Assembly (NCBI GenBank): GCA_964436825.1
Contig: CAYTEO010000010.1
Span: forward strand, 36-64,035
Length of the DNA stretch: 64,000 nucleotides
Source: an uncultured Fibrobacteraceae bacterium
Lineage (GTDB): Bacteria; Krumholzibacteriota; Krumholzibacteriia; LZORAL124-64-63
Direction of reading: 5' to 3'
The first letter of the stretch is position 1. The number at the start of each line of letters is the position of its first letter. A program made the position numbers and the translations under genes. Of the stretch, positions 1 to 16,944 are shown piece after piece. The notes beneath the pieces were generated by a model. The model searched no databases. It saw nothing but the letters and a program-made list of their open reading frames with translations, and had not been told where the DNA came from.

Positions 1-97
1 TAATAAGGTGCTCGGCCCGGGAGACGGTGTCTCCCTCCTCGCCCACCGAATCGTGTTCCACATCGTTCCAGCATTCCTCTCGCGAGGAGGGGCCGTC

Positions 98-3000
98 ATG
101 CGCGTGCTTCGCTCGTTCCTGGTATTGGTGCTTCTATCGGTGGTCGCGGTGGGCGGCCTGGCTCAACCCGTCACCACGTGTCCCAACACGATGGGGATCT
201 ACTTCGACACCGAAGCGACCGTCTACTGCTCGGACGCCGCTGCCGGTGGTCCGCTGACCTTCTACCTGATGATCACCAACCCCACCGGCGACCAGATCGC
301 CGCCTGGGAGTGCAAGGTGGAGTGGGACCAGATGGGTGGCGGGTTCTTCGGGAACTGGACGTTCGCCAACGACGGCATCAACGTCGGCGACACCAGCGAT
401 CCGCTGAACACCCTGCTGGCCGTCGGCGTGGGGGCCAATCCCATCCAGCCCCAGCCGGCCACCATCCTGGCCACCTGGAGCGGGTTCTTCGGCTACGGCA
501 CGGGCTCGGTCTTCAAGATCACCCCGTACCCCGACACGGCCAGCTTCGATCCGCCGGCTCCCGGCTACGCGATCGACGAGGTCAACCTCCAGGCCTGCGG
601 CGTCAGCTCCGGGGATTTCGACCTGCCGGTAGCGGCAATCGGCCTCGATTGTCCCGTTGTCATCCATTCTTGCACCACACCGGTCGACATCTCCGCCCTG
701 CAGTCGTACGACGAATCCGGCGCCCCGGTGTATGGCCAGGCCGATGTCCTGGTCCAGGGCACCGTGACCACCGCTCCCGGCACGGTCGTCGCGGACGGTT
801 TCTACGTCCAGGACGGGACAGGGGGCATCCTGGTCACCCGTGAGACGATGCCGTCCCTGGCGGTCGGCGATCGGGTCGAGGCGGCCGGCATCCTCGCCGA
901 CCGCGACGGCGAGATCCTGATCGCCGGCCGGACCATCACCCCGCAGGGAACCACCGCCCCCGTTCTCCCCGACACCGTCGCCCTCGTCTCCCTGGTCGAC
1001 GCCTACGACCGCGTGGCCACCCTGACCTGGACGACGGGGATCGTCGCCGCGGTGGACCAGGACAGCCTGCTGCTGCGCGCCGGGTCGGCCGAGCTGCCCG
1101 TTCTCTTCGGTCCCGGCACCGGGATCGACCCGGCCGGCATCGAGCCGGGCGACGTCCTGGAGGTCACCGGCATCCTGACGGTCCGCAACCGGCGGATCGT
1201 CCTGCTGCCGCGCTCCCGGGACGACCTGTTCGATGCGACCCCCGACTTCGGGTTCAACGTCCTGGTCGAGGGCACGGCTGTCGGCGGGACGACGTGGGAG
1301 GACTTCGACAACGTGGCCGGTGTGACGCCGACTGCCTCCAACGGCTTCGATTCCGGCTGGGACGTGATCGGTACCGGTACCCCGATCGTCTTCACCGGCA
1401 TCGACGGCTACGAGCTGGACCACGACCTGCGGCGGGAATACGACCCGGTCTACGGTTCCCGCCAGTGGCCCCTGCGCGTGACGACGCCGCGGGCGGCGGC
1501 GGACACGACGACCGTGACCCTCGTCTTCACGCCGCGCCTGCAGGGACTGACCGGCTTCCCGGTCCTGCTCCTGGATCCGGCGGCCGGCGACACCCTGGAC
1601 CTGCTGGCCGACGGCACGGTCACCTACCCGGTGCCGCCCGGTGCCGGGGACGACGTCCGCGACTTCGTGCTGGTCATCGGCAACACGCCGGGACCGTTCA
1701 GCGGCCCGCTGAGCGTCGTCCTGACGGCGACCTGCGGCGACCTGGTGGACGGCGGCAACCGGGCCGAGACGCTGGAGGGGGCCACCGACGGCTACGACCC
1801 GGCCCTGGACGTGCCCGAGGCGCCGGTGCCGCCGTCGGGCTACCTCTCCCTGGCCTTCCCCCATCCCGAGTGGGGCTCGCCGCTGGGGGACGACTTCCAG
1901 GTGGACCGGCGGGCCGTCTACAACCCCCTGCAGGAGCAGCGGGTCTGGACCTTCGCCGTCAGGACCGACCGCGCCGAGCCGGTGACGGTCACGTTCGAGC
2001 CCTCGTTCGTGCCGGCCGACGGGTTCCGGTTGCGGCTGATGGACCACACCGACGGCGTGGTGCGCGATCTCTACCCGGATCTGTCCTATACCTTCACCCC
2101 GACGCCGGGGGCGACCCGGCAGTTCGACCTGATCGTCGGCAACCCGCCGGTGCCCCTGCTGAGCCCGGTGGAGCGTGTCCTGCCTGCCGGCTGGTCGCTG
2201 ATCGGCTTCCCCCTGACCCCCGCCGCCGGCCAGAACACCCTGGGCCAGGCGGTCCAGGACGACGCGGCGTCGGTGACCTTCTTCTACAGCTACCACGGCG
2301 CCGCCGGCTACACCCTGGAGGCCGCGGAAACGGCCTTCCAGCCGGGTGACGGCTTCTGGTGCGCCTCCGTGGACTCCTTCGCCTGGACGATGGAGGGTGA
2401 GAAGGAGATCGACGGCGTCCGCGTCCCCCTGCAGCAGGGCTGGAACATCGTCGGCTACCCCCTGTGGATCCCCACCGACCTGGCCGGCGTCCGCGTCGAC
2501 CTGGGGCCGGTGCGCTACACGTTCCAGCAGGCCGTCGACCTCGGACTGGTCGCCCCGACCGTCTACGACTACGACAACGCTGCCGGCGACTACGTCACCG
2601 GAACCCAGCTGCAGACCTGGCACGGCTACTTCGTGGCGGCCTACTCGGAGGACGTCTCCCTCTGGTTCGACTACACGAACATCCCGACGAGCAAGGTGCT
2701 GCGGCCCGACCCGTTCGAGGCGATGGACGCCGACCACTGGCTCGTGACGGTCGTCCCCGACGGGGGGACGCCGATCCGGTTCGGCGTCAGCAGCGAGGCC
2801 CGGGACGGCTTCGATCCCGTCTACGACCTGCCGCTGCCGCCGCCGTCGCCCGTGGCCGCCGCGGCGCCGCGCCTGGCCCTCGTCCATCCCGAGTGGCGGT
2901 TGGCGACAGGCAGCGAGTTCGTCGCCGATGTCCAGTCGGCGGACAGCAAGGAGCACCACTGGGACGCCGTGTTGACGGTGTCCCGGCCGGGACCGGTGAC

Positions 3001-3469
3001 CCTCGATTGGAGTCGCAGCGCCTGGCCCGAGGGGGAGGACTTCCAGATCTACCTGCCCCAGCAGAACCGGGTCGTCGTCATGTCGATGCGCGACCAGAAG
3101 AGCGTGACCCTGGATGTGGGAACCGAGCCGCTGCTGGTCCGGTTCAGGACGCCCGACATGACCACAGGCGCCGATGACGTGCCGCAGGCGAGGGCGGCCC
3201 TCTCCTGCCGTCCCAACCCCTTCAACCCCCGGACGGAGATCCGGATGGTCGTCCCGCGGGCCGGAGAGGCCGTCGTCCGCGTCTTCGACGTCCAGGGACG
3301 GGTCGTCCGGACGCTCAGGGCCGGGCGGGTGGCCGCCGGGGAGCATGCCGTCACCTGGCAGGGACGGACCGACAGCGGCGGCGAGGCCGCCAGCGGCGTC
3401 TATTTCGCACGTCTCTATCTCGATGGCCGACCGACAGGCGCCATCGGCAAGATGAGTCTCGTCCGCTGA
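98..3469 (+). CDS. Large secreted protein (about 1120 aa). It has an N-terminal signal peptide, a novel N-terminal beta-rich YFD-type domain and a C-terminal T9SS-type (Por_Secre_tail / FlgD-Ig-like) sorting domain.
   Basis: In-frame ATG at 98 is preceded by GAGGAGG at 84-90. The N-terminus MRVLRSFLVLVLLSVVAVGGLAQP is a signal peptide. The C-terminal about 80 aa (NPFNPRTEIRMVV...FDVQGRVVRTL...GEHAVTWQGRTDSGGEAASGVYFARL) matches the T9SS C-terminal-domain signature. The same tail is present on four other proteins in this window. Confidence 0.8.
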   Translation: MRVLRSFLVLVLLSVVAVGGLAQPVTTCPNTMGIYFDTEATVYCSDAAAGGPLTFYLMITNPTGDQIAAWECKVEWDQMGGGFFGNWTFANDGINVGDTSDPLNTLLAVGVGANPIQPQPATILATWSGFFGYGTGSVFKITPYPDTASFDPPAPGYAIDEVNLQACGVSSGDFDLPVAAIGLDCPVVIHSCTTPVDISALQSYDESGAPVYGQADVLVQGTVTTAPGTVVADGFYVQDGTGGILVTRETMPSLAVGDRVEAAGILADRDGEILIAGRTITPQGTTAPVLPDTVALVSLVDAYDRVATLTWTTGIVAAVDQDSLLLRAGSAELPVLFGPGTGIDPAGIEPGDVLEVTGILTVRNRRIVLLPRSRDDLFDATPDFGFNVLVEGTAVGGTTWEDFDNVAGVTPTASNGFDSGWDVIGTGTPIVFTGIDGYELDHDLRREYDPVYGSRQWPLRVTTPRAAADTTTVTLVFTPRLQGLTGFPVLLLDPAAGDTLDLLADGTVTYPVPPGAGDDVRDFVLVIGNTPGPFSGPLSVVLTATCGDLVDGGNRAETLEGATDGYDPALDVPEAPVPPSGYLSLAFPHPEWGSPLGDDFQVDRRAVYNPLQEQRVWTFAVRTDRAEPVTVTFEPSFVPADGFRLRLMDHTDGVVRDLYPDLSYTFTPTPGATRQFDLIVGNPPVPLLSPVERVLPAGWSLIGFPLTPAAGQNTLGQAVQDDAASVTFFYSYHGAAGYTLEAAETAFQPGDGFWCASVDSFAWTMEGEKEIDGVRVPLQQGWNIVGYPLWIPTDLAGVRVDLGPVRYTFQQAVDLGLVAPTVYDYDNAAGDYVTGTQLQTWHGYFVAAYSEDVSLWFDYTNIPTSKVLRPDPFEAMDADHWLVTVVPDGGTPIRFGVSSEARDGFDPVYDLPLPPPSPVAAAAPRLALVHPEWRLATGSEFVADVQSADSKEHHWDAVLTVSRPGPVTLDWSRSAWPEGEDFQIYLPQQNRVVVMSMRDQKSVTLDVGTEPLLVRFRTPDMTTGADDVPQARAALSCRPNPFNPRTEIRMVVPRAGEAVVRVFDVQGRVVRTLRAGRVAAGEHAVTWQGRTDSGGEAASGVYFARLYLDGRPTGAIGKMSLVR

Positions 3470-3516: not shown

Positions 3517-3616
3517 TCAGCCATTCAGGTAGGATCGTCGCGGGTGCTCCCCGGCGGTGTCCTCACGGTCCCGATCTCCCCTCAAGCCCCCGCACCAGGA
3601 GCCGACAACCTCGACC

Positions 3617-4267
3617 ATGAAGACCTACGACGCCACCTACCAGCAGCACCCGGCCTACTTCGGCACCGAGCCGGAGGGGATCCTCGTCTCCTTCCAGGAG
3701 CGGATCCGCCCGGGCGGGCGGGTCCTGGACATCGGGGTGGGGCAGGGGCGCCATGCCCTGCCGCTGGCGAGGGCCGGTTACCGGGTGGTCGGGATCGACA
3801 CCTCGGCCCGGGCCATCGCGGACACGCGTGCGGCGGCGGAGTCGGAGGGGCTCGAGATCGAGCTCGTCCAGGCCGACTTCCTGGACTATTTCCCCGAGGC
3901 GCCGTTCGACGCCGTCCTGGCCTTCGGCCTGATGCAGACCCTGTCGCGCAGCGGGTGCGCCAGTCTCGTCCACCGCTGCCACATGTGGACCGAGCCGGGC
4001 TCCGTCCTGATGCTGACGGCCTGGCACGTGGACGATCCGTCCTACGACCGGGTCCGTGACGAGTGGGAGAAGGTGGGTCTGCACAGCTTCCGCAGCCCCG
4101 CAGGGGAGTACCGGACGTACCTGGCGCGTGGGGTCATACGGAATCTCTTCCGCGGCTGGAAGTCCCTCCATCACCGGGAATACCTGGGTCCCGCGCACCG
4201 CCACGGCGACGGTCTCGAGCACCGGCATGGGGTCATCGAGCTGGTCGCCGTCCGCAAGCTGTACTGA
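3617..4267 (+). CDS. Class I SAM-dependent methyltransferase (TehB/UbiE-like small-molecule or peptide methyltransferase fold)
   Basis: Internal ATG at 3617 (MKTYDATYQ) within ORF 3557-4267. The glycine-rich SAM motif VLDIGVGQGRHALPLARAGYRVVGIDTS and an acidic loop are typical of Rossmann-fold methyltransferases. Confidence 0.8.
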   Translation: MKTYDATYQQHPAYFGTEPEGILVSFQERIRPGGRVLDIGVGQGRHALPLARAGYRVVGIDTSARAIADTRAAAESEGLEIELVQADFLDYFPEAPFDAVLAFGLMQTLSRSGCASLVHRCHMWTEPGSVLMLTAWHVDDPSYDRVRDEWEKVGLHSFRSPAGEYRTYLARGVIRNLFRGWKSLHHREYLGPAHRHGDGLEHRHGVIELVAVRKLY

Positions 4268-4511
4268 CCGGGGAAAAGAGATCGCCGGGAGCCGTCCTGG
4301 AGGTACTCCCTCGCCCAGTGAGTACCCCTGTCAGGAACGACTCCCGGCTTCCGGCATGGGACGATAGTAATATCAGTGTTGTTTGACCTGCACCACTGTC
4401 CCGGATGTGTTCGCCCGTCTCGAAAAGAAACAGCCCACGCCAGCTCGTGAAGGCTATCTCCCTCGCGCCATCCTTAACAATCCACGAGCCGGGAAAGTGC
4501 TGCACACTTTT

Positions 4512-4540
4512 TTGTTGTATGTGATAACCTGCCGGATATC
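4512..4540 (+). promoter_or_regulatory. Putative sigma70-type promoter (-35 TTGTTG 4512-4517, 17-nt spacer, -10 GATATC 4535-4540) inside a conspicuously AT-rich pocket upstream of the Cys-rich mini-ORF
   Basis: Segment 4370-4545 (gatagtaatatcagtgttgtttgacc ... cacttttttgttgtatgtgataacc) is far more AT-rich than the flanking 70% GC sequence. The hexamers are spaced 17 nt apart and sit about 25 nt upstream of the SD AAGGGAG and ATG 4563. Confidence 0.35.
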
Positions 4541-4562
4541 CGCTCAGAGAAGGGAGCACGGG

Positions 4563-4745
4563 ATGATCGAACTGGTTGACGAGACCATCGCGGAACAGGG
4601 GGATTTCACTCTGGCCGGCAATTGCAACTGCTCGTGCGGCTGCCTGGAGAGCCTGGCCGACGATGCGGTGGGACCCGTCGGGGCCGACAAGGCTTCCGAG
4701 TCGTCGGCCACCTACACCGGCAACGAATACGACATCAACGGCTGA
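4563..4745 (+). CDS. Candidate RiPP precursor peptide (60 aa): MIELVDETIAEQGDFTLAGNCNCSCGCLESLADDAVGPVGADKASESSATYTGNEYDING. It has a Cys cluster CNCSCGC and an acidic C-terminal region.
   Basis: ATG at 4563 is the internal Met 61 of track ORF 4383-4745. It is preceded by AAGGGAG 7 nt upstream. The peptide is small and Cys-rich. Its stop TGA 4743-4745 lies 5 nt before a candidate TTG start of the radical SAM/SPASM gene. The promoter-like AT-rich island lies immediately upstream, and the upstream part of the 120-aa track ORF contains that island. Confidence 0.6.
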   Translation: MIELVDETIAEQGDFTLAGNCNCSCGCLESLADDAVGPVGADKASESSATYTGNEYDING

Positions 4746-4749
4746 CGTC

Positions 4750-6249
4750 TTGTCCCCCGAACCTCCCCTCTGCCATGTCTTCAGGCACGAGCAGCGGTGG
4801 TTCGTCTACGACGCGGGCAGCGATCGGCTGCTGAGGGTGGACGACTGCCTGGCGGACGTCCTGGGTGCCTGGCAGCGCGTGGGGACTCCCGCTGCCATCG
4901 CGGGCGAGATGGCGGGCAGACGATCGCCGGCCGCGGTGGCGCGTGCCCTGCACGAGATCGCGGACGCTCGCAACCGCGGCCTCCTGTTGCCTGCTGCACC
5001 GGTCCTCGCGGCCCCCGCGACGGACGAGACCGCCGATCTCTACGCCCATGGTCAACAACACCTCGCCCTCACGGTCACCGAGGACTGCAATCTGCGTTGC
5101 CGGTACTGCCTGCACGGTTCGACCAACCCCTGGATCCGCCCGCACCGTCCCCGGTGCATGCCACGACAGACCGCTCTGCGTGCCGTCGCCACCTTCCTGG
5201 ACCACGCCGACCGGACGGCGCTGCCGATCGTCTCCTTCTACGGGGGAGAGCCGCTGCTGAACCTGCCGGTGATCGAGGCGGTCTGCGACCTCGTCGCCAG
5301 GCACCCCCGCGGTCGCGACGTGCGCCTGGTCGTCGATACCAACGGTACCCGGCTGGTGGGTGCGGCGGAGCTGATCCGTCGCCACGGTCTGTTCCTGCAG
5401 GTGAGTCTCGACGGTCCGGCCTCCGTCCACGACCGCTACAGGGTGAGCCGCGGGAAACGTCCCACCCACCGTCGCGTCGAGGACAACCTGACGCGCCTGC
5501 TGGCGGAGGACCCTTCCCTGGCACGTCGCCTGCGGATCCAGGTCACTCTCATGCCGGACACCGACCTCGAGGCCATCGACGCCTACTTCGCCGACTTTCC
5601 ACCCTTTCGCCGGAACGGCCTGCCCGGCTCGCCGTCTCTGGGGGTGACGGCCGCCAACCTGGCAGGCGTGCCGGTGGCGCGGGAGGTCCTGACGGCCCGT
5701 AACCTAGAACGTCGCCGCCGGTCCCTGGAGGAGGCCCGCCGGCGGTTCGTCGCCGCCTGTCGCGAAGGGCGCCGTCGGGAACTGGGACCGGTGACCAGGG
5801 CCCTGTTCGAACCTCGGCTCATCCGGTGGTACCACCGCTCCCGTGGGGTGATACCCGGGCGGCTCCGGCCGACCGGATGTTGCCTGCCCGGCGTGCGCAA
5901 GGTCCATGTGCGCGCCGACGGCGTCCTGCAGCCGTGCGAGCGGGTGGGACAGACGATGTCCCTGGGAACGGTCGCCGGCTGGATCGAGCCGGCGGCCGTC
6001 CGTGGCCTGTGGGAGCGTTTCCTGGAGGCCCTGGGCGACCGCTGCCGCGACTGCTGGGCGGTGCGTCACTGCGACCTGTGCTTCACGGTGCTGGCACCCC
6101 ACTGGGACCGGGGACCCGCGCCGGCCCTGCCGGAGCGTCTCTGCCGGGCGGTGCGTCGCCGGCTGGAGGACGACCTGCGACTCTACGCCTCTGTCCGTGG
6201 CGAGGATGGACGCGGCACGGCATGGTTGCGGGACACGAGAGTGGCCTGA
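4750..6249 (+). CDS. Radical SAM/SPASM-domain peptide-modifying enzyme (RiPP maturase; anSME/SCIFF-maturase-like architecture)
   Basis: The radical SAM motif CNLRCRYC is followed by GGEPLL. A C-terminal SPASM-type Cys cluster (GCCLPG...C...CRDCWAVRHCDLC) is present. The N-terminal about 90 aa (RWFVYDAGSDRLLRVDDCLADVL...) precede the core and could be a peptide-binding (RRE-like) region. The start is uncertain. TTG at 4750 would give translational coupling with the precursor. Alternative in-frame GTG codons lie at 4777 and 4837. The track ORF start at 4576 overlaps the precursor and was rejected. Confidence 0.85.
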   Translation: MSPEPPLCHVFRHEQRWFVYDAGSDRLLRVDDCLADVLGAWQRVGTPAAIAGEMAGRRSPAAVARALHEIADARNRGLLLPAAPVLAAPATDETADLYAHGQQHLALTVTEDCNLRCRYCLHGSTNPWIRPHRPRCMPRQTALRAVATFLDHADRTALPIVSFYGGEPLLNLPVIEAVCDLVARHPRGRDVRLVVDTNGTRLVGAAELIRRHGLFLQVSLDGPASVHDRYRVSRGKRPTHRRVEDNLTRLLAEDPSLARRLRIQVTLMPDTDLEAIDAYFADFPPFRRNGLPGSPSLGVTAANLAGVPVAREVLTARNLERRRRSLEEARRRFVAACREGRRRELGPVTRALFEPRLIRWYHRSRGVIPGRLRPTGCCLPGVRKVHVRADGVLQPCERVGQTMSLGTVAGWIEPAAVRGLWERFLEALGDRCRDCWAVRHCDLCFTVLAPHWDRGPAPALPERLCRAVRRRLEDDLRLYASVRGEDGRGTAWLRDTRVA

Positions 6250-6256
6250 GGCTGGC

Positions 6257-6982
6257 TCAGCGGCGGGTGGAGTCGGCGGCGGCGGCGAGCGCGTCCTCGG
6301 CCGGGATACCCTTCAGCAGGACGAAATCACCCAGTTCCGGCGCATGGGCCAGCCAGCGCTGGAATCGAAAAGGAGTGCCGTCGACCACGGCCGTCGAATC
6401 GGGCAGCTGCGGCAGCAGATTCGCGTTGGCCGCCTCTATGATGGAGTGAAAGCGGCCGGAGCGGACCAGTGCACTGAACTCCGCGGAGATGTCTGACTCG
6501 AGGGCATAGCCTGTGGTGGTGGTTTCACCGTCGACGATGGCCAGGTAGCTGCCGGTCACGAAGCGACCGGACGCGTTCTCGATGCCGAGCAGGCGCACCA
6601 GTCGGTCCTGCCCGGCCCGGTGGATGGCGTCGATCGTACCGGCCCTTTCCATCTTCCTGGCGATCGCTTCCTGGGATGGCACCTCGTCCATGGTGGAGGA
6701 GAACACGTTGTTGTCGCCGGCGAACCGCGTCATGACCAGCGTGTTGTCGTCGAGCAGGACCGCGTCAGCATACCGGAATCCATAGCTGACCAGCGAGGGC
6801 TGGCGCACCAGGGCCCCCGAGAACACCAGGAAGGTCGCCAGCGCCAGCGTTGCCTGACGCCGCCGCCGCCGCACACGGAACCTGTGCTGCAAGCGGGCGG
6901 CCAGGGCCTCGCGATGATCCGTGTCGATCCGTGGCTGGACCGCCAGGGACGCAAGATGCTGCTCCAGATCGTTCCAGGTCAC
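6257..6982 (-). CDS. Anti-sigma factor (single TM, cytoplasmic N-terminal anti-sigma region, periplasmic C-terminal domain)
   Basis: It overlaps the upstream ECF sigma gene by 4 nt (ATGA). The N-terminal region is followed by the Arg-rich RVRRRRRQATLALATFLVFSGALV transmembrane segment. This is the typical partner arrangement for ECF sigma factors. Confidence 0.6.
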   Translation of the reverse strand: MTWNDLEQHLASLAVQPRIDTDHREALAARLQHRFRVRRRRRQATLALATFLVFSGALVRQPSLVSYGFRYADAVLLDDNTLVMTRFAGDNNVFSSTMDEVPSQEAIARKMERAGTIDAIHRAGQDRLVRLLGIENASGRFVTGSYLAIVDGETTTTGYALESDISAEFSALVRSGRFHSIIEAANANLLPQLPDSTAVVDGTPFRFQRWLAHAPELGDFVLLKGIPAEDALAAAADSTRR

Positions 6983-7635
6983 GATGCTCGCTCCATCAAG
7001 GTCCGCAGACGACCGAGCGCACGGCTGACCCGGGCCCGGACGGTTCCTGCCGGTACGTTCCTGATGACGGCGATCTCGCGGTAGGTCAGGCCGTCCAGGT
7101 AGTGCATCAGGAGATCCTCACGCATCGTCTCGTCCAGCTCCTGCAAGCACTGCAGGAGGCGGCGTCGCTGCCGGGAGTGGATCGCCCGCGTCAGGGGATC
7201 CGCCTGCTCGTCGACCAGCACGTCCTCGCCGATGACGTTCTCGGGCAGCTCCGTGTACCGCCACAGAGCACGGGACCGGTGGTGCTTCCGCAACAGGTTC
7301 AGCGCGATCCGGAACAGCCAACCCCCGAACGTCACCCCCTGCCAGCGAAAGGTCCAGAGCCGGTCCAGGGCCCGCTCGAACGTCTCGCCGGTCAGATCCT
7401 CCGCCACTTCCAGGTCCAGTGTCCGCTGGTAGAAGAAGCGGAGGATGCGGTCATAGTACTTGCGATAGAAGTAGTCGAACTTCTCGTGATCGACCCTGGC
7501 CAGCAACAACCATCGCTTCTCGATGGCCAGCTCCTCGTCCGACGCCTCCGGTTCCTGTGCTGTCGCCGGCGGTGCGGACGCGCGAGGAGGATCGATCCCG
7601 GGGAACTTCCGCTTATTCCAATCCTCAGAGGCCAA
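6979..7635 (-). CDS. RNA polymerase sigma-70 family ECF sigma factor
   Basis: Region 2 (FDYFYRKYYDRILRFFYQR, ETFERAL) and region 4 HTH (LTYREIAVIRNVPAGTVRARVSRALGRL) are present. The first track codon is TTG at 7635. The true start could be slightly downstream. Confidence 0.8.
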   Translation of the reverse strand: MASEDWNKRKFPGIDPPRASAPPATAQEPEASDEELAIEKRWLLLARVDHEKFDYFYRKYYDRILRFFYQRTLDLEVAEDLTGETFERALDRLWTFRWQGVTFGGWLFRIALNLLRKHHRSRALWRYTELPENVIGEDVLVDEQADPLTRAIHSRQRRRLLQCLQELDETMREDLLMHYLDGLTYREIAVIRNVPAGTVRARVSRALGRLRTLMERAS

Positions 7636-7678
7636 AACTGCTGCCCGCCTTTTTGGGGATGAGTTGCAACTGACCGTG

Positions 7679-7707
7679 ATGATAGCAGTTATTCACACCG
7701 CCGACAA
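7679..7707 (-). promoter_or_regulatory. Putative promoter for the sigma/anti-sigma operon (minus strand: -35 TTGTCG, 17-nt spacer, -10 TATCAT)
   Basis: Read on the minus strand from the plus-strand motifs cgacaa (7702-7707) and atgata (7679-7684). It is located about 40 nt upstream of the sigma start in a locally AT-rich stretch. Confidence 0.35.
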
Positions 7708-7787
7708 CCCCCCGCCCCCGTCTTGTCCCCTGCCGGAGCCTCTGCTACCTTGCCTGGACACGTCACCGTCGCCGGGAAAGGACAGCC

Positions 7788-9344
7788 ATGGCCCAGATCC
7801 CCAACCGCCATCTGCGGGAGTTCCTGCCGTTCCTGGAGCAGCAGGGAGAGCTGATCCGCATCCGCGAGCCTGTCGATCCCTGCCTGGAGGCGGCCGAGAT
7901 CGCCGATCGCTTCGTCAAGGCGGGCGAACGGCCGGCGCTGCTGTTCGAGGACGTCCGGCCGGGCCGCTTCAGCCGGGAGGCCGGCCGGCCCGACCGGCGG
8001 GCGACGACGGCCGACGGGCGTCCCGTGCCGCTGCTGATGAACCTGTTCGCCTCGCGGCGGCGCCTGGCCTGGGCCCTGGGGGCCGAATCGCTGGACGAGG
8101 TCGTCGCCAGGCTGCGGGAGCCGCTGGAGCTGGGACCGCCCGAGTCCCTCTGGGAGAAGATCCGCCTGCTGGGCAAGGCGAAGGAGTGGGGGGCGGGGAT
8201 GCCGCGGACCGTCCGGCGGGGCGCCTGCCAGGAGGTCGTCGTCACCGGCGACGAGCTGGATCGCCGCGGCCTGCTGGACCTGATGCCGGTGCTGACCACC
8301 TGGCCCCTGGACGGTGGTCCGTTCATCACCCTGCCGCTGGTGATCACCCGCGATCCCGACAGCGGGCGGCGGAACATCGGCATGTACCGCATGCAGGTCT
8401 TCGACGGCCGTACCGCCGGCATGCACTGGCAGATCCACAAGACCGGCGCCGACCACTACCGGCGCTACGAACAGCGCGGCGAGCGGATGCCGGTCTGCGT
8501 GGCGCTGGGCGGGACGCCGGCGCTGACCTACGGCGCCACCGCGCCGCTGCCCGACGACGTGGACGAGGCCCTGTTCACCGGTTTCCTGCTGGGCAGGCCG
8601 ATCACCTGGGTGCCGGCCGTCACCCAGGACCTGCTGGTGCCGGCCGAGGCGGACTTCGTCGTCGAGGGCTACGTCGAGCCCGGCGAGCGGCGCCTCGAGG
8701 GACCGTTCGGCGACCACACCGGCTTCTACACCCTGCCGGAGGAGTTCCCGGTCCTCCACGTCACGGCGATCACCTCGCGACGCGACCCGGTCTACCCGGC
8801 AACGGTCGTCGGGGTCCCGCCCATGGAGGACGCCGTCCTGGGGTGGGCCACCGAGCGCCTCTTCCTGCCGCTGCTGCAGAAGATCCTGCCGGAGGTCGTG
8901 GACTACCACCTGCCGCCCGCGGCCTGCTTCCACAACCTGGCCATCGTCAAGATCCGCAAGCGCTACCCCGGCCACGCCCGCAAGGTCTGCCACGCCCTGT
9001 GGGGGACCGGCCAGATGATGTTCACCAAGACCATCGTCGTCGTCGACGAGGACGTGGACCTGGGCAATCCCACCGAGATCCTGTGGCGGGTGGCCAACTC
9101 CATCGACCCGGCGCGGGACTGCTTCTTCGCCGAGGGGCCGGTGGACCACCTGGACCACAGCGTCAACGTCCAGTTCACCGGCGGCAAGATGGGGATCGAC
9201 GCCACCACCAAGTGGGAAGGCGAGGAGGGGTTCCGCCGCGAGTGGCCGCCGGTGGTGCGGATGAGCGACGAGGTGCGCCGCGCCGTGGACGAGCGGTGGC
9301 GCGACCTGCTGGCGCGGCTGGAAGACGACGGGAGGCACCCGTGA
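7788..9344 (+). CDS. ubiD: UbiD-family prenyl-FMN-dependent (de)carboxylase. It is a 3-octaprenyl-4-hydroxybenzoate decarboxylase or a menaquinone (futalosine-pathway MqnM-like) decarboxylase.
   Basis: About 518 aa with UbiD-family blocks (NIGMYRMQV, GPFGDHTGFYT, acidic E/D metal-binding residues). AAGGA SD precedes ATG 7788. It is the first gene of a 4-gene operon with 4-nt overlaps. Confidence 0.85.
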   Translation: MAQIPNRHLREFLPFLEQQGELIRIREPVDPCLEAAEIADRFVKAGERPALLFEDVRPGRFSREAGRPDRRATTADGRPVPLLMNLFASRRRLAWALGAESLDEVVARLREPLELGPPESLWEKIRLLGKAKEWGAGMPRTVRRGACQEVVVTGDELDRRGLLDLMPVLTTWPLDGGPFITLPLVITRDPDSGRRNIGMYRMQVFDGRTAGMHWQIHKTGADHYRRYEQRGERMPVCVALGGTPALTYGATAPLPDDVDEALFTGFLLGRPITWVPAVTQDLLVPAEADFVVEGYVEPGERRLEGPFGDHTGFYTLPEEFPVLHVTAITSRRDPVYPATVVGVPPMEDAVLGWATERLFLPLLQKILPEVVDYHLPPAACFHNLAIVKIRKRYPGHARKVCHALWGTGQMMFTKTIVVVDEDVDLGNPTEILWRVANSIDPARDCFFAEGPVDHLDHSVNVQFTGGKMGIDATTKWEGEEGFRREWPPVVRMSDEVRRAVDERWRDLLARLEDDGRHP

Positions 9345-10102
9345 CCGACGACGACGTCCACGAGCGCGACCGCGGCCGCTGGACCGTCCGCGATCCGGCC
9401 GCCCACGACCGGGCCGTGCGCGACATGTTCGGCCGCATCGCGCGGGTCTACGACTTCATGAACCACCTGTTGAGCCTGGACCGCGACCGCGCCTGGCGCC
9501 GCCACCTGGTGGACCTGCTCGACCCCGGCACCGGCCTGGTGCTGGACCTATGCGCCGGCACGGGCGACCTTGGCCTGGAGGCGCTGCGGCGCGGCAGGGC
9601 CCGCCGCGTGGTGGCGGCCGACTTCACCCCGGCCATGCTGCGGGCCGGCCGGGGCAAGGGCCTGGGCGTGACCGTTCCCGCCCTGGCCGCCGACACCCAG
9701 CGGCTCCCCTTCCGCGACGACTGCGCCGACGCGGTGATGGTGGGGTTCGGGGTCCGCAACCTGGCCGACCTGCGGGCCGGCCTGGCGGAGATGCGCCGGG
9801 TCCTGCGCCCCGGCGGCCGGCTGCTGGTCCTGGACTTCTTCCGTGCCGATCCCGCCGCCAAGGGCCAGCGGCGCGGTGTCCCCAGGCCGGTGCGGTGGCT
9901 GCTGGAGCGGGCCCTGCCGCTGCTGGGCCGCATCTTCGGCCGCGACCGGGCCGCCTACGGCTACCTGGTCGAGAGCATGGAACGGTTCGTCACCCCCGCG
10001 GAGATGGCGGCACTGCTGGAGGAGTTCGGCTTCAGCGAGGTGCTGGTCCGGCGCCAGACGCTGGGGATCGCGCACATCGTGGCCGGGAGGGTCGTGGGAT
10101 GA
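9341..10102 (+). CDS. ubiE: Demethylmenaquinone / 2-polyprenyl-6-methoxy-1,4-benzoquinol C-methyltransferase (UbiE/MenG family)
   Basis: GTG at 9341 overlaps the ubiD stop (GTGA) and is preceded by GGAGG. The motif RIARVYDFMNHLLSLDRDRAWRR and the SAM-binding motif LVLDLCAGTGDLG are present. The long track ORF 7523-10102 is an in-frame upstream extension running antisense-free through ubiD and was rejected. Confidence 0.85.
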   Translation: MTDDDVHERDRGRWTVRDPAAHDRAVRDMFGRIARVYDFMNHLLSLDRDRAWRRHLVDLLDPGTGLVLDLCAGTGDLGLEALRRGRARRVVAADFTPAMLRAGRGKGLGVTVPALAADTQRLPFRDDCADAVMVGFGVRNLADLRAGLAEMRRVLRPGGRLLVLDFFRADPAAKGQRRGVPRPVRWLLERALPLLGRIFGRDRAAYGYLVESMERFVTPAEMAALLEEFGFSEVLVRRQTLGIAHIVAGRVVG

Positions 10103-10719
10103 GACGAGTCACCGTCGCCTGGACCGGCGCCAGCGGGATCGCCTACGGGGTCCGCCTGGTGGAGACCCTGCTGCGGGCCGGTGTGTCCGTCGACCTGTTG
10201 CGCAGCGATGCCGCCGCCCTGACGGCCGCGGCGGAGCTGACGCGACCGCTGGAGGAGGTGCTCGTCGATCTGGCCAACGTCGCCTCGTCGGCCGGGGCGG
10301 ACCTGCGCGGGCACGGACTGCGCGACTTCTCGTCCCCCCTGGCCAGCGGCTCCGCCCCGTCCGATGGCATGGTCGTCTGCCCCTGCAGCATGGGCACCCT
10401 GGCGCGGATCGCGGCCGGCACCAGCGAGACCCTCCTGCTGCGCGCCGCCGACGTCTGCCTGAAGGAGCGCCGGCCCCTGGTCCTGGTGCCGCGCGAGACG
10501 CCGCTGGCGACCCTCCACCTGGAGAACATGCTGCGGCTGTCGCGCAACGGGGCGATCGTCCTGCCGGCCATGCCCGGCTTCTACCACCGGCCCCGGCGCG
10601 TGGAGGACCTGGTCGACTTCGTCGTCCAGCGGGTGTGCGACCACCTGGGCGTCCCGGTGGACCTGGTGCGACGCTGGGGGGACGACACGGGCGACGGGCC
10701 GCGGGAGGAACCGGCGTGA
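10099..10719 (+). CDS. ubiX: UbiX/Pad1-family flavin prenyltransferase (prenyl-FMN synthase)
   Basis: ATG 10099 overlaps the ubiE stop (ATGA). The N-terminus VAWTGASGIAYGVRLVETLL and the motif MVVCPCSMGTLARIAAG are typical of UbiX. The size is about 206 aa. Confidence 0.85.
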   Translation: MRRVTVAWTGASGIAYGVRLVETLLRAGVSVDLLRSDAAALTAAAELTRPLEEVLVDLANVASSAGADLRGHGLRDFSSPLASGSAPSDGMVVCPCSMGTLARIAAGTSETLLLRAADVCLKERRPLVLVPRETPLATLHLENMLRLSRNGAIVLPAMPGFYHRPRRVEDLVDFVVQRVCDHLGVPVDLVRRWGDDTGDGPREEPA

Positions 10720-11570
10720 GGCTGCGGACCTACCTGGACCTGGTGAAGTTCGAGCACACCCTGTTTGCCCTGCCGTTCGCCCTGCTGTCGCTGCTGGTGG
10801 CCACCGGCGGGCGGCCGAAGGCCTGGACGCTGGCCTGGGTCCTGGTGGCCATGGTCGGGGCCCGCAGCGCGGCGATGGCCTTCAACCGGATCGCCGACCG
10901 CCACTACGACGCCCTCAACCCCCGCACCGCCGACCGCCACCTGCCGCGCGGCGAGGTCTCCCTGCGGGGGGCGTGGACCTTCACCGTCGTGTCGGCGCTG
11001 CTGCTGGTGCTGGCCGCCGGGATGCTGAACCGCCTCTGCCTGGCGCTCTCCCCGGTGGCCCTGCTGGTCGTCCTGGGCTACTCCTGGACGAAGCGCTGGA
11101 CCCACTGGTCCCACCTGGTGCTGGGGCTGGGGCTGGGGATCGCGCCGGTGGGGGCGTGGCTGGCGGCCACGGGCCGCTTCGCCCCCTTCCCCCTCTGGCT
11201 GTCCGCGGCGGTCATGCTCTGGGTGGCCGGCTTCGACGCCATCTACGGCTGCCAGGACGAGGCGTTCGATCGCCGGACCGGACTGCACTCCCTGGCGGTG
11301 CGGCACGGGACGGTCGGGGCGTTGCGCATCGCAAGACTGCTGCACGCCGGCGCCGTGTTGTGCCTGGCCGTCGCCCTCGCCGTCGGCCCGGGCCTGGGGC
11401 CGCTGGCCCGGATCGGCGGCCCGCTGGTGATGGCCGTCCTGCTGGCCTGGGAGCACCGGCTGGTCCGCGGCGGTGATCTCAGCCGTCTCGATCTGGCCTT
11501 CTTCACGCTGAATTCCTGGCTCGGCGCCGCCGTGCTGGGGGTCGTCCTGGTCGATCTCTACCTCTTCTGA
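10716..11570 (+). CDS. UbiA-family polyprenyltransferase (4-hydroxybenzoate or 1,4-dihydroxy-6-naphthoate prenyltransferase; UbiA/MqnP-like)
   Basis: GTG 10716 overlaps the ubiX stop (GTGA). Multiple TM helices are present, together with the Asp-rich prenyl-diphosphate motifs NRIADRHYDALN and the second D-rich motif DAIYGCQDEAFD. Confidence 0.8.
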   Translation: MRLRTYLDLVKFEHTLFALPFALLSLLVATGGRPKAWTLAWVLVAMVGARSAAMAFNRIADRHYDALNPRTADRHLPRGEVSLRGAWTFTVVSALLLVLAAGMLNRLCLALSPVALLVVLGYSWTKRWTHWSHLVLGLGLGIAPVGAWLAATGRFAPFPLWLSAAVMLWVAGFDAIYGCQDEAFDRRTGLHSLAVRHGTVGALRIARLLHAGAVLCLAVALAVGPGLGPLARIGGPLVMAVLLAWEHRLVRGGDLSRLDLAFFTLNSWLGAAVLGVVLVDLYLF

Positions 11571-14904: not shown

Positions 14905-16944
14905 CTACTTGGCCAGCACGATCTTGTGGAACGTCACCATCCCGGCGCCGGTCGCCCGTACCAGGTAGGTGCCGCTGGCGGCGGGCCGGCCGCCGTCGTC
15001 GCGCCCGTCCCACGTGACCAGGTGCTCGCCGGCGGTCCGCTGACCGGAGACGAGGGTGCGCACGCGCCGCCCCTGCAGGTCGAGCACGTCGACGGTCACG
15101 TTCCCGTCCGCGGGCAGGGTGAAGGCGATGGTCGTGGTGGGGTTGAACGGGTTGGGCCAGTTGCGGACGTCCAGGCCGGGATGGCGCGAGGGCGTGCCGT
15201 CGCCGACGGCGGTGGCGTCGTCGGCCAGCAGCCACATGGTCGCGTTGAGGAAGAACTCCCGGTTGTTGCTGCCCGCCTCGGTCCAGTTGGCGGGGTGATC
15301 CTCGCTGCCGGTGCCGTCGGCCGTGCTGGAGGAGTCGCCGTAGCCGACGATCCGGCCCTGGCCGTAGCGGGACCAGCCGGCCACGTGCGGATCGCCCGCG
15401 TCCATGCTGATCAGGGCGCCCACGTCGCTCAGGTCCGGGTTGGCCGTCGGCCAGAGGGAGAGGCTGTCGCCCACGTGGTAGATGACCGCCGCCACGTCGC
15501 CGTAGCTGCCGTGGATGACCGGGTTGGAGGGGTCGGCGGCAACGTTGGTGAACGTCCCGGTGATGCCGTTGTTGCCCTCGTCCTTGACGTGGAAGTGCAG
15601 CCCGAACAGGGCGCCGCAGAACGTCTCGGTGTCCGAGCCGACCGGGTCGCTGATGTGGGGCACCGAGTAGCCGCCGAAGATGCTGGGCGAGTCCCAGCCG
15701 TTGCCGTTGCGGTCGCTGGCGTTGTGGTTGGCGACCACGAACAGCGAGCCGCCGGCGTAGACGAACTGCCGGACGGCCTCGATCTCGGCGGCCGTGAACG
15801 GGTTCTGGGGCTCGACGATCACCAGCAGGTCCACGCCGGTCAGCAGCGAGGAGCTCAGGGCCGTCGTGTTGCTGCGGACGGTGTGGCCGGCCAGGTAGAG
15901 CTCGTAGGCCCAGCTGGAGAGCTGGCCGCTCCAGTCGCTCTCGGCGGTCGGGTTCGCGGGCAGGGGGTCGGGGTAGTCGTCGTCGATCCGCCAGTTGCCG
16001 GTCGTGCCGGCATCCTGGTCGTGGGCGTGGTCGAACAGGATGACCTTGCCGGCCGTCGCGTCGCCCTGGACCCAGAAGGAGTAGACCGTCGTCGGGGCGT
16101 CGATGGGGTTGCGGACCTCGGCGTTGTCGTCGTCGCGGCAGGAGACGTAGTACTCGTAGAGGGTGTTGCCGGTCACGCCGCCCAGGGTCACCTGGTACTG
16201 GTCGCCGCCGATCGCGGTCATGATGACCGGCAGGTAGCTGCCGCCGCCGGCGCGGTACCAGCAGGTGGCCGAGAGGATCGTGCCGTCGGGATCGACGCAG
16301 GTGGCCGTGATCGTCACGTCGTCGCCGGCGACGGGGGCCGCGGGCGTGTGGCCGACGTTCGAGATGGCCGGCACCTGGTTGCCGCCGCCGGTGGTGCCGT
16401 CGTAGTACAGCTCGACGTACTCGTAGAGGTAGTCGTCGGGGTCGTTGGCCTCGCTGATGACCATCCCCGACAGGGTGCCGTCGGGCACCTCGACGCCGCT
16501 GCCGGGATCGGGGCTGGAGTCGATGCTCGACCAGGCCAGCTGTTCGGGATCGGCGCGGTGGTAGGCGAGCTTCGTCGTGGTGATGGCCGGGGTGGGGCCG
16601 TCCTCCACGCCGCCGGCGGAGTTGAGGAGCTGGAACGTCTCGTCCCCGTTGATCATCGGTGCCAGGTCGCCCGAGTTCAGGAAGACGACGTTGCTGCCGA
16701 GGGTGACCCCGTAGTAGCTCTCGAAGGCCGCCCTGTCCACGTTGCGTGCGATGATGACGTAGCCGCCCGGTTCGACGGTCGTCCCGGCCGGGATCACGTA
16801 GTCGTGGACGGCATTCTCCTGGTGCAGGGTCCAGCCGCCGATGTCCAGGCCCGTCTGGGCGAGGGCCGCGCCGGCGACGAGCAGGCAGGTCGGCAGCAGT
16901 ACCGCGAGAAGCGGCGAGATGACGCGGCGAGTCGAGACTCTCAT
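14905..16944 (-). CDS. Secreted lamin-tail-domain (LTD) protein with a central ThuA/DUF4350-like alpha/beta region and a C-terminal T9SS-type sorting domain
   Basis: ATG 16944 with AGAGGA SD. Signal peptide LLAVLLPTCLLVAGAALAQ. LTD-like N-terminus GWTLHQ...YVIPAGTTVEPGGYVII. C-terminal tail NPFNPTTTIAFTLP...LDLQGRRVRTL...GEHLVTWDGRDDGGRPAASGTYL. Confidence 0.75.
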   Translation of the reverse strand: MRVSTRRVISPLLAVLLPTCLLVAGAALAQTGLDIGGWTLHQENAVHDYVIPAGTTVEPGGYVIIARNVDRAAFESYYGVTLGSNVVFLNSGDLAPMINGDETFQLLNSAGGVEDGPTPAITTTKLAYHRADPEQLAWSSIDSSPDPGSGVEVPDGTLSGMVISEANDPDDYLYEYVELYYDGTTGGGNQVPAISNVGHTPAAPVAGDDVTITATCVDPDGTILSATCWYRAGGGSYLPVIMTAIGGDQYQVTLGGVTGNTLYEYYVSCRDDDNAEVRNPIDAPTTVYSFWVQGDATAGKVILFDHAHDQDAGTTGNWRIDDDYPDPLPANPTAESDWSGQLSSWAYELYLAGHTVRSNTTALSSSLLTGVDLLVIVEPQNPFTAAEIEAVRQFVYAGGSLFVVANHNASDRNGNGWDSPSIFGGYSVPHISDPVGSDTETFCGALFGLHFHVKDEGNNGITGTFTNVAADPSNPVIHGSYGDVAAVIYHVGDSLSLWPTANPDLSDVGALISMDAGDPHVAGWSRYGQGRIVGYGDSSSTADGTGSEDHPANWTEAGSNNREFFLNATMWLLADDATAVGDGTPSRHPGLDVRNWPNPFNPTTTIAFTLPADGNVTVDVLDLQGRRVRTLVSGQRTAGEHLVTWDGRDDGGRPAASGTYLVRATGAGMVTFHKIVLAK

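Follow-up and report, generated by a model that had tools for sequence, protein, structure and literature searches.

The 64-kb window analysed here, the whole stretch of 64,000 nucleotides from an uncultured Fibrobacteraceae bacterium, carries a conserved four-gene cassette. It encodes a 60-residue Cys-rich precursor peptide, a radical S-adenosylmethionine (SAM)/SPASM peptide maturase, an extracytoplasmic function (ECF) sigma factor and a single-pass membrane protein. Comparative sequence evidence confirmed the precursor as a genuine conserved gene. By analogy with the closest characterised maturases, we consider with moderate confidence that the cassette represents a new sactipeptide- or ranthipeptide-like family of peptides made by the ribosome and modified post-translationally (RiPPs), in which the Cys residues of a CxCxC motif would be cross-linked to the tail of the same peptide. 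The cassette genes and the ribosome-binding site of the precursor are located as follows.

4563..4745, forward strand: precursor peptide gene, 60 aa plus a TGA stop (4743-4745), ATG start at 4563
4550-4556, forward strand: Shine-Dalgarno sequence AAGGGAG, six nucleotides 5' of the precursor ATG
4750..6249, forward strand: predicted peptide maturase with a RiPP recognition element (RRE), radical SAM and SPASM domains, 499 aa, TTG start
6257..6982, reverse strand: 241-aa candidate anti-sigma membrane protein, its start overlapping the sigma gene stop by four nucleotides
6979..7635, reverse strand: ECF-type sigma-70 family sigma factor, 218 aa (Sigma70_r2 and Sigma70_r4_2)

The product of the open reading frame (ORF) at 4563-4745, read directly from the DNA, is MIELVDETIAEQGDFTLAGNCNCSCGCLESLADDAVGPVGADKASESSATYTGNEYDING. 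It consists of a leader beginning MIELVD, a core with the arrangement C21-N-C23-S-C25-G-C27 (codons 4623-4643) and an acidic tail of 33 residues with Y-D-I-N-G at its end (4728-4742). The gene forms the 3' half, in the identical frame, of a 120-aa ORF (4383-4745) in the mechanical ORF list. The preliminary description of this DNA had proposed just such a Cys-rich ORF within the longer frame, with AAGGGAG as its own Shine-Dalgarno sequence, and the sequence confirms both; a purine-rich GGAG or GGAGG occupies the equivalent position in relatives. Across all six reading frames of the entire window, the C.C.C.C pattern is found a single time. The identical 60-aa protein (P0123) is present without a name in the NCBI, JGI and Logan collections, and the peptide was thus absent only from the gene track used in the preliminary description, not from public data.

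An exhaustive profile search of 1.84 billion representative proteins identified 42 peptide clusters, every one of 51-70 aa. Members of the family share a leader of about 17-28 residues starting with M-[IFYH]-x-x-[VLI]-[DE], often followed by EPDHRP or DPGHQP. The CxCxC motif is invariant, with up to six alternating Cys residues, and one member has just two Cys. The tail spans 27-38 residues, 29 being the commonest length. In the subgroup to which the window peptide belongs, an aromatic residue (Y/W) precedes a D-I-N-G ending, which is usually C-terminal and sometimes followed by a short extension, while a second subgroup carries T-G-D-Q-A behind the Cys run and a different C-terminus. The distance from the third Cys to the Asp of D-I-N-G is constant inside each subgroup. 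The two enzymes nearest to the window maturase (67% and 62% identity) each have a peptide gene directly 5' of their own, and the encoded peptides resemble the window precursor, with the outlines MIEPVD...CTCACSC...GPVG...QYDING and MIEIID...CECRCSC...GPVG...ELDING, respectively. Among these three closest genes, the ratio of nonsynonymous to synonymous substitution rates (dN/dS) was 0.30-0.52 and all indels were multiples of three. Conservation at the protein level stops at the ATG, the sequence 5' of it being unrelated in close relatives, and peptide genes of just 20-50% identity still share their start, their Cys motif, their C-terminus and their stop. Enzymes with 33-49% identity to the window maturase are also accompanied by homologous peptides, encoded upstream, downstream or on the opposite strand. 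In a scan of NCBIfam and Pfam, the window peptide had no match even at E-values up to 10, and other members gave only chance-level weak matches, to the listeriolysin S and FibroRumin models.

The maturase gene begins four nucleotides past the precursor stop. We infer that translation starts at the TTG at 4750, in agreement with the N-termini of homologues and with a 499-aa database entry (P0001); the sole in-frame alternative, a possible start at ATG 4663, would add 29 residues found in no homologue. A TTG-initiated enzyme of about 500 aa just past the precursor stop, with the motif CNLRCRYC and a SPASM Cys cluster, had been proposed in the preliminary description, and the present analysis bears this out. 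The radical SAM motif is C113-N-L-R-C117-R-Y-C120 (CX3CX2C, 5086-5109). The SPASM Cys residues are C378, C396, C432, C435, C441, C444 and C465 (5881-6144), spaced as C378-X12-G391-X4-C396, C432-X2-C435-X5-C441-X2-C444 and C465, with the C-terminal part reading C432-R-D-C435-W-A-V-R-H-C441-D-L-C444. This arrangement agrees with the SPASM pattern CX9-15GX4C...CX2CX5CX3C...C except that the last spacing is X2 instead of X3. All ten Cys residues (three radical SAM and seven SPASM) are invariant across 40 homologues, and the seven in the SPASM region presumably fit a CteB-like auxiliary cluster with an open iron site for the substrate thiolate. In Pfam, Radical_SAM (PF04055) was detected at 54.7 bits against a cut-off of 29.5, with Fer4_12 as the only other domain.

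Comparison with NCBIfam, in which 64 families matched the maturase and 25 of the matches were shown, returned full-length alignments to CcpM (167.2 bits, E = 5.8e-49), RumMC (151.9 bits, E = 2.4e-44) and QhpD (110.3 bits, E = 9e-32), and further matches to the PapB, nif11-type, SCIFF, anaerobic sulfatase-maturating enzyme (anSME) and FxsB maturases. The enzyme stays below the cut-off of every curated family (340-720 bits for the main matches): the scores compare with cut-offs of 500 bits for CcpM (TIGR04068), 720 for RumMC (NF035951) and 453 for QhpD (TIGR03906), while PapB scored 100 bits against 340 in an alignment restricted to the radical SAM core, SCIFF maturase (TIGR03974) 65.8 against 425 over residues 9-251 only, and anSME (TIGR03942) 64 against 349. 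The best sequence match in the Protein Data Bank (PDB) was CteB (5WGG, E = 1.5e-49), aligned from residue 3 and thus including the peptide-binding domain. An AlphaFold2 model built from a 40-sequence alignment reached a predicted local distance difference test score (pLDDT) of 94.9. In this model, residues ~8-75 (4771-4974) are predicted to form an RRE-like domain of three strands (8-13, 16-21, 26-30) followed by three helices (32-44, 47-54, 60-75), with pLDDT above 90. Foldseek searches of the PDB ranked CteB first over the full length (template modelling (TM) scores 0.61/0.70), followed by ChlB, anSME, SkfB, TigE and SuiB. On sequence and model grounds, the maturase is thus assigned as an RRE, radical SAM and SPASM enzyme of the CteB/CcpM/RumMC branch, outside every curated family. 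The earlier view that the core motif fits no named family holds as far as curated models and cut-offs are concerned; the family is nevertheless not isolated, given its place in that branch. Members of the enzyme's core family have profile scores of more than 590, the next group reaching 402 at most. A metagenome scan with enzyme patterns yielded mostly generic radical SAM/SPASM matches and one close locus only (L081).

To assess the association of the genes, we compared the neighbourhoods of about 18 distinct loci with a core-family enzyme. Relatives of the precursor were located within ~3 kb of the enzyme in 15-16 of them, in line with the earlier suggestion of a precursor paired with a radical SAM/SPASM maturase, here of RRE type. 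An ECF sigma gene adjoins the enzyme in 14 of the loci, and a membrane protein of about 235 aa, detected with a profile from eight homologues, is found beside it in 16; most missing members fall at contig ends. Gene order and orientation differ by lineage, yet the four genes remain together, a classic sign of functional linkage, and precursor, maturase, sigma factor and membrane protein constitute a conserved four-gene cassette. In Phycisphaerae and Firmicutes, more distant relatives of the enzyme are accompanied by peptides of the CxCxC type, and the membrane protein is missing there. All homologue records with an organism name are metagenome-assembled genomes (MAGs), assigned to Krumholzibacteriota, Latescibacterota, an uncultured Fibrobacteraceae bin or unclassified bacteria, and the cassette is known only from uncultured bacteria and metagenomes. 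No description of this family was found in the literature searched, which did not cover the supplementary precursor lists of PMC10288494 (six unnamed new groups).

The sigma/anti-sigma-like pair, the most distinctive feature of the cassette, had been missed in the preliminary description. Both of its genes are oriented toward the maturase gene in a convergent arrangement. With 92.7 bits against a cut-off of 42.9, the sigma factor qualifies under the ECF model TIGR02937. By hydropathy, the 241-aa protein has an N-terminal segment of about 40 residues, then an RRRRR stretch, a single hydrophobic helix at ~44-60 and a remainder of about 180 residues, and the predicted topology places the N-terminus in the cytoplasm and the ~180-aa domain outside. 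This layout matches that of a single-pass anti-sigma factor, and from its topology and gene order the protein is probably one. Searches of Pfam, NCBIfam and the PDB, profile searches included, returned no match and no known anti-sigma domain, and a word-indexed search recovered only the protein itself and one relative. An AlphaFold2 model based on these two sequences was unusable (pLDDT 43). The pair probably regulates the cassette or senses its state.

The region upstream of the precursor was also found to be conserved.

4272..4516, forward strand: conserved non-coding region, with hairpins at ~4285-4350 and 4490-4514

The spacer between the upstream methyltransferase gene and the precursor measures 295 nt and is 70% identical over 252 nt to the related locus L161 (7472-7722), whose maturase has 67% protein identity to that of the window. 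A long hairpin at ~4285-4350 has the conserved loop CCCTCGCCCA. The second hairpin (4490-4514), 49 nt before the precursor ATG, has the invariant form AAAGTG-N5-CACTTT followed by a T-run, and a terminator-like site was detected there. The sequence AAAGTGCTGCAC is invariant in the window, L161 and L162 (1-22), and hairpin structure is partly conserved in L173 (~5345-5430). The folding z-score of the region was only -2.0, with two or three sequences available. Candidate roles for the element are those of a leader or attenuator RNA, of an operator and of a terminator for the upstream gene. A hidden protein gene in the spacer was rejected, as the conserved blocks shift frame, contain frame-breaking indels and are interrupted by stops in every frame. 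Rfam searches over 4000-8000 identified no family and returned one chance microRNA match on the minus strand (E = 0.15).

The preliminary description had placed a promoter-like, AT-rich island before the precursor. The AT-rich stretch is present, with a G+C content of 44-46% at 4475-4549 against 70.7% window-wide, but a scan of 4200-4800 for the sigma-70 consensus detected no promoter. The sequence TGTGATAAC is located at 4519-4527 in the AT-rich stretch 3' of the T-run hairpin. Its likeness by eye to TGTGAATAAC was dropped as a candidate signal, because searches for shared motifs performed no better than shuffles.

The mechanism that we propose would begin with translation of the precursor from its own ribosome-binding site, and the short distance to the maturase gene suggests coupled translation. 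The RRE domain probably binds the N-terminal leader M-I-E-L-V-D. The radical SAM cluster would generate a 5'-deoxyadenosyl radical and, with the SPASM auxiliary clusters, the sulfur of the CxCxC Cys residues would most likely be bonded to carbons of tail residues, the conserved (Y/W)-D-I-N-G end being the candidate acceptor region. Thioether chemistry is suggested because the best full-length matches of the enzyme are maturases that form thioethers or have Cys-rich peptides as substrates. The 'putative sactipeptide' precursors of related Firmicutes loci, the seven SPASM Cys residues and the StsA/StsB precedent point the same way. A hairpin with alternating residues of the tail as acceptors is suggested by the fixed length of the tail and its D-I-N-G end, and Asp and Asn are candidate acceptors by analogy with QhpD, PapB and NxxC enzymes. 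The product would be a hairpin peptide with multiple thioether bridges of the sactionine or ranthionine type, and the sigma factor and membrane protein would probably form a switch that controls, or responds to, the cassette. The genes themselves, their domain architecture and the joint conservation and co-location of all four are shown by the sequences; within the scheme, we infer which bond forms and on which residues, the anti-sigma function, the direction in which regulation runs and what becomes of the peptide.

Several observations weigh against this proposal. Sequences of the radical SAM/SPASM type that look alike can catalyse different reactions (PMC10288494), and with scores so far below the cut-offs every named family offers a weak basis for assigning a function by sequence. 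Neither an exporter, a leader protease nor an immunity gene is conserved in the loci examined, which is unusual for a secreted bacteriocin. Family enzymes without a precursor occur at L002/L169, L170 and L163, the last at a contig edge. For the membrane protein, gene order and topology argue for the anti-sigma role, and family membership, a PDB match or a usable model do not. Searches for a motif common to the upstream regions of the precursor and the sigma gene, by best ungapped matches and by dyad enumeration, gave nothing better than shuffles, which leaves transcription of the precursor by the sigma factor unsupported.

With these points in view, alternative explanations were considered. 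In one of them, the cassette is a RiPP-based signalling module and not a source of an antibiotic: the modified peptide would signal to the sigma/anti-sigma pair or act as its effector, either through recognition by the outside domain of the membrane protein or by acting on the sigma/anti-sigma complex. This is compatible with thioether formation, and we regard it as unlikely, though the least unlikely of the alternatives. It draws on the persistent linkage of the four genes in distant lineages that differ in gene order and orientation, on the frequent position of the precursor directly beside the membrane protein gene (L164, L167, L168, L171 and L172), on the lack of that protein in the distant Phycisphaerae and Firmicutes relatives, and on the precedent of MibX/MibW in the feed-forward control of lantibiotics. 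However, there is no evident export route for the peptide, the shared promoter motif was not found, the membrane protein has no recognised fold or function, and regulators are common in biosynthetic clusters without being receptors of the product. A stronger version, a self-contained signalling or stress module of the four genes instead of an antibiotic cluster, in which the cross-linked CxCxC peptide would be the ligand or effector of its own ECF pair, appears a little less likely again. That version would include a possibly new link from Cys to (Y/W)-D-I-N-G and the outside domain of the anti-sigma protein as a new receptor fold, a combination we hold equally doubtful, and we would extend the same low credence to a RiPP-gated sigma switch confined to uncultured lineages of the Fibrobacteres-Chlorobi-Bacteroidetes (FCB) type. 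We find it improbable, slightly more so than the module, that the peptide acts inside the cell as a metal-binding, metallothionein-like or redox-buffering peptide, with the enzyme installing another modification or few links and the ECF pair responding to metal or thiol stress. Metallothioneins have CxC motifs that resemble the alternating Cys of the peptide, and the two to six Cys in CxCxC spacing with very acidic flanks, the conserved stress-type sigma factor and the missing exporter and protease would all suit such a role. Simple metal binding, however, needs neither a conserved leader nor a fixed tail length, and genes for metal transport or metal sensing are not conserved in the neighbourhood; the enzyme combines an RRE with the full CteB-like architecture, and its relatives take Cys thiols as cross-link donors.

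The enzyme could instead be a maturase of the anSME type or of a cofactor pathway (pyrroloquinoline quinone (PQQ), mycofactocin or QhpD), acting on a substrate encoded elsewhere, with the small ORF incidental. The anSME structures do match its core fold (TM to target 0.71-0.73), anSME, QhpD and FxsB are among the profile matches, and a sulfatase gene lies 1.1 kb upstream at L167. But the anSME and QhpD scores are far below their cut-offs (64 against 349 and 110 against 453 bits), the PqqE and MftC models are not among the 25 of 64 NCBIfam matches shown, the anSME matches miss the N-terminal RRE-like domain, the peptide has no C-x-P-x-R sulfatase motif, no sulfatase gene adjoins the maturase in the window, and the peptide family sits beside the enzyme at nearly all loci (15-16 of about 18). 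This makes the explanation very improbable. Spurious ORFs are many in high-GC genomes and the gene track had discarded the enclosing 120-aa ORF, so an unexpressed chance ORF might also be imagined. Against it stand the strong Shine-Dalgarno sequence at the correct spacing, the conservation of gene ends and Cys motif at 20-50% identity with in-frame indels only, and the 42 homologous clusters of 51-70 aa with no protein-level conservation 5' of the ATG. The comparative evidence of clusters, motif conservation and dN/dS excludes this reading for practical purposes, and we give it next to no probability. The cross-linked peptide is the explanation that we favour.

Other features of the loci were recorded beside these main components. 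The G+C content at third codon positions was 0.81-0.85 for the maturase, anti-sigma-like and sigma genes and 0.82 for the precursor, against 0.91-0.97 for neighbouring genes. This difference may reflect a separate history of the cassette genes, with horizontal acquisition as one possibility, or other constraints on their expression. At the precursor-less locus L170, the enzyme (P0083) has no detectable precursor and no adjacent sigma pair; it looks like an orphan copy, and P0083 and P0097, both listed with a longest contig of 639,897 bp, may be paralogues in one genome. In one lineage, a gene for an Old Yellow Enzyme-type flavin oxidoreductase overlaps the maturase start by four nucleotides (L164, 6889-8004; L165, 458-1573), and its product is a possible lineage-specific tailoring enzyme. 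A set of AmmeMemoRadiSam type (Memo, a 105-aa protein and a 296-aa radical SAM protein) is divergent from the maturase at L163 (5354-7903) and L166 (3004-5547) and is probably an unrelated neighbour. In a Bacillota MAG, a 319-aa ORF ending ...YDVCACRCGCSCECNDP... (L010, 5000-5959, forward strand) is located immediately 5' of a related radical SAM/SPASM gene. Pfam detected nothing in its 319 aa, and an internal Met precedes the CxCxC motif; it is either a large protein with a RiPP-like CxCxC C-terminus, or the way ORFs were defined has joined a short precursor in frame to the sequence before it.

Upstream of the cassette, a methyltransferase gene was identified.

3557..4267, forward strand: Class I SAM methyltransferase, 236 aa (Methyltransf_25/TehB-like)

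Its match to the methyltransferase model of daptide RiPPs is weak (45 bits against a cut-off of 175). The gene lies upstream only in the window, L161 and L173 and is absent from other lineages. L161 and L173 share synteny of FtsJ, 5'-nucleotidase and AIM24 genes, with UbiD in L173. We rejected the methyltransferase as a core cassette gene as unproven, since it occurs only where this wider housekeeping synteny is retained. Beyond the sigma gene in the window, genes for UbiD (7788-9344), UbiA, a peptidyl-prolyl isomerase and a SpoU methylase were observed. The UbiD decarboxylase and UbiA prenyltransferase genes (7788-11570, forward strand) correspond to UbiD, UbiE, UbiX and UbiA genes at the same position in L173; these common neighbours show that the cassette has a fixed chromosomal site in this lineage. 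Large proteins encoded at 8-3469 (forward strand) and 14905-16944 (reverse strand) carry C-terminal domains resembling FlgD_ig or type IX secretion system (T9SS) sorting domains, which fits the FCB-group lineages (Latescibacterota, Krumholzibacteriota, Fibrobacteraceae) of some homologue MAGs.

Much new peptide chemistry is to be found among radical SAM/SPASM peptide maturases, of which, to our knowledge, almost all characterised examples come from cultured Firmicutes, Actinobacteria and Proteobacteria. The simple, defined substrate, with its leader, CxCxC motif and tail of fixed length, makes the present pair a clean target for heterologous reconstitution. If Cys is indeed linked to the tail motif containing Asp and Asn, the known topologies of thioether peptides would be extended. 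The sigma factor and membrane protein are the standing companions of the pair and an exporter or protease never is, which raises the testable question of whether the product serves in signalling or as an effector of stress responses instead of acting as a bacteriocin. A novel cross-link topology or a role in regulation is a real prospect. On present evidence, the cassette remains within the expected diversity of radical SAM RiPPs.

Among known systems, the maturase is structurally closest to CteB, the SCIFF maturase of the thermocellin pathway (5WGG, 5WHY), with which it shares the RRE, the radical SAM barrel, the SPASM domain and a Cys-rich substrate. Identity to CteB is only 18-19% by structural alignment, and the window precursor has no SCIFF match; the hosts are uncultured bacteria, apparently of the FCB group, instead of Clostridia, and a sigma/anti-sigma pair is present here. 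In RumC, the substrate of RumMC, a CxC motif supplies the donors and four sactionine bridges hold the hairpin together. RumMC was the second-best full-length match, although the window precursor is unrelated to the RumC model. CcpM (TIGR04068), the best NCBIfam match over the full length, acts with the precursor families CLI_3235, Apre_1838 and CA_C0660, and the Firmicutes loci retrieved with the maturase profile contain 'putative sactipeptide' precursors of the Apre_1838, CA_C0660 and RumC types with CxC or CxCxC motifs. The window precursor had no match to the CcpM companion peptide models (TIGR04065/04067), and the accessory families TIGR04066 and TIGR04069 were not detected in the four neighbours scanned with NCBIfam (a 1153-aa protein, the methyltransferase, the 241-aa protein and the sigma factor), UbiD having been scanned with Pfam only. 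The CcpM-type SacP23 cluster of Paenibacillus polymyxa likewise includes an ECF sigma gene and yields an active antimicrobial with an unsolved structure (PMC10731318). That cluster also carries an ABC transporter, a subtilisin-like protease, TIGR04066 and TIGR04069 (PMC10731318), whereas the window locus has no adjacent ABC transporter or subtilisin-like protease.

The core motif had been described at first as unfamiliar. No curated model covers the peptide, but a CxCxC sactipeptide has a precedent in StsA/StsB of Streptomyces sparsogenes, in which a CxCxCx4GxGxG core forms a hairpin with three nested Cys-to-Gly sactionines to alternating acceptors, as shown experimentally, and StsB belongs to an MftC-like group and not to the CteB/CcpM group (PMC10288494). 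StsA is the only characterised CxCxC donor core and the best model for the alternating use of Cys in the window peptide. The window peptide shares the CxCxC motif with StsA and has no GxGxG acceptor; its family has tails of 27-38 residues, and its enzyme groups with CteB and CcpM. QhpD, of the QhpD/QhpC system, aligns over the full length, but no amine dehydrogenase genes were observed in the window, and no qhp, pqq or mft genes were found near the maturase in the window scans. The window peptide also differs from substrates of PapB-type ranthipeptide synthases in having no CX3D-type repeat. QhpD and PapB join Cys sulfur to beta or gamma carbons of Asp or Glu, and the tail motif of the window peptide contains Asp and Asn, comparable with these acceptors. 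MibX and MibW of microbisporicin are an ECF sigma/anti-sigma pair inside a RiPP cluster. As in such clusters, the precursor and the maturase have beside them an ECF sigma gene and, after it, a gene for a membrane protein; unlike MibX/MibW, the pair belongs to a minimal cassette conserved across lineages, and its membrane protein falls outside the known anti-sigma families. By sequence comparison, the cassette lies outside the CcpM, RumMC, SCIFF, QhpD, anSME and StsA-type systems, and the PapB model was matched below its cut-off and over the radical SAM core only. The pairing of a precursor with an RRE, radical SAM and SPASM enzyme is itself standard, but the precursor family is new, the enzyme clade lies outside the curated models and the obligatory partnership with a sigma factor and a membrane protein is unusual.

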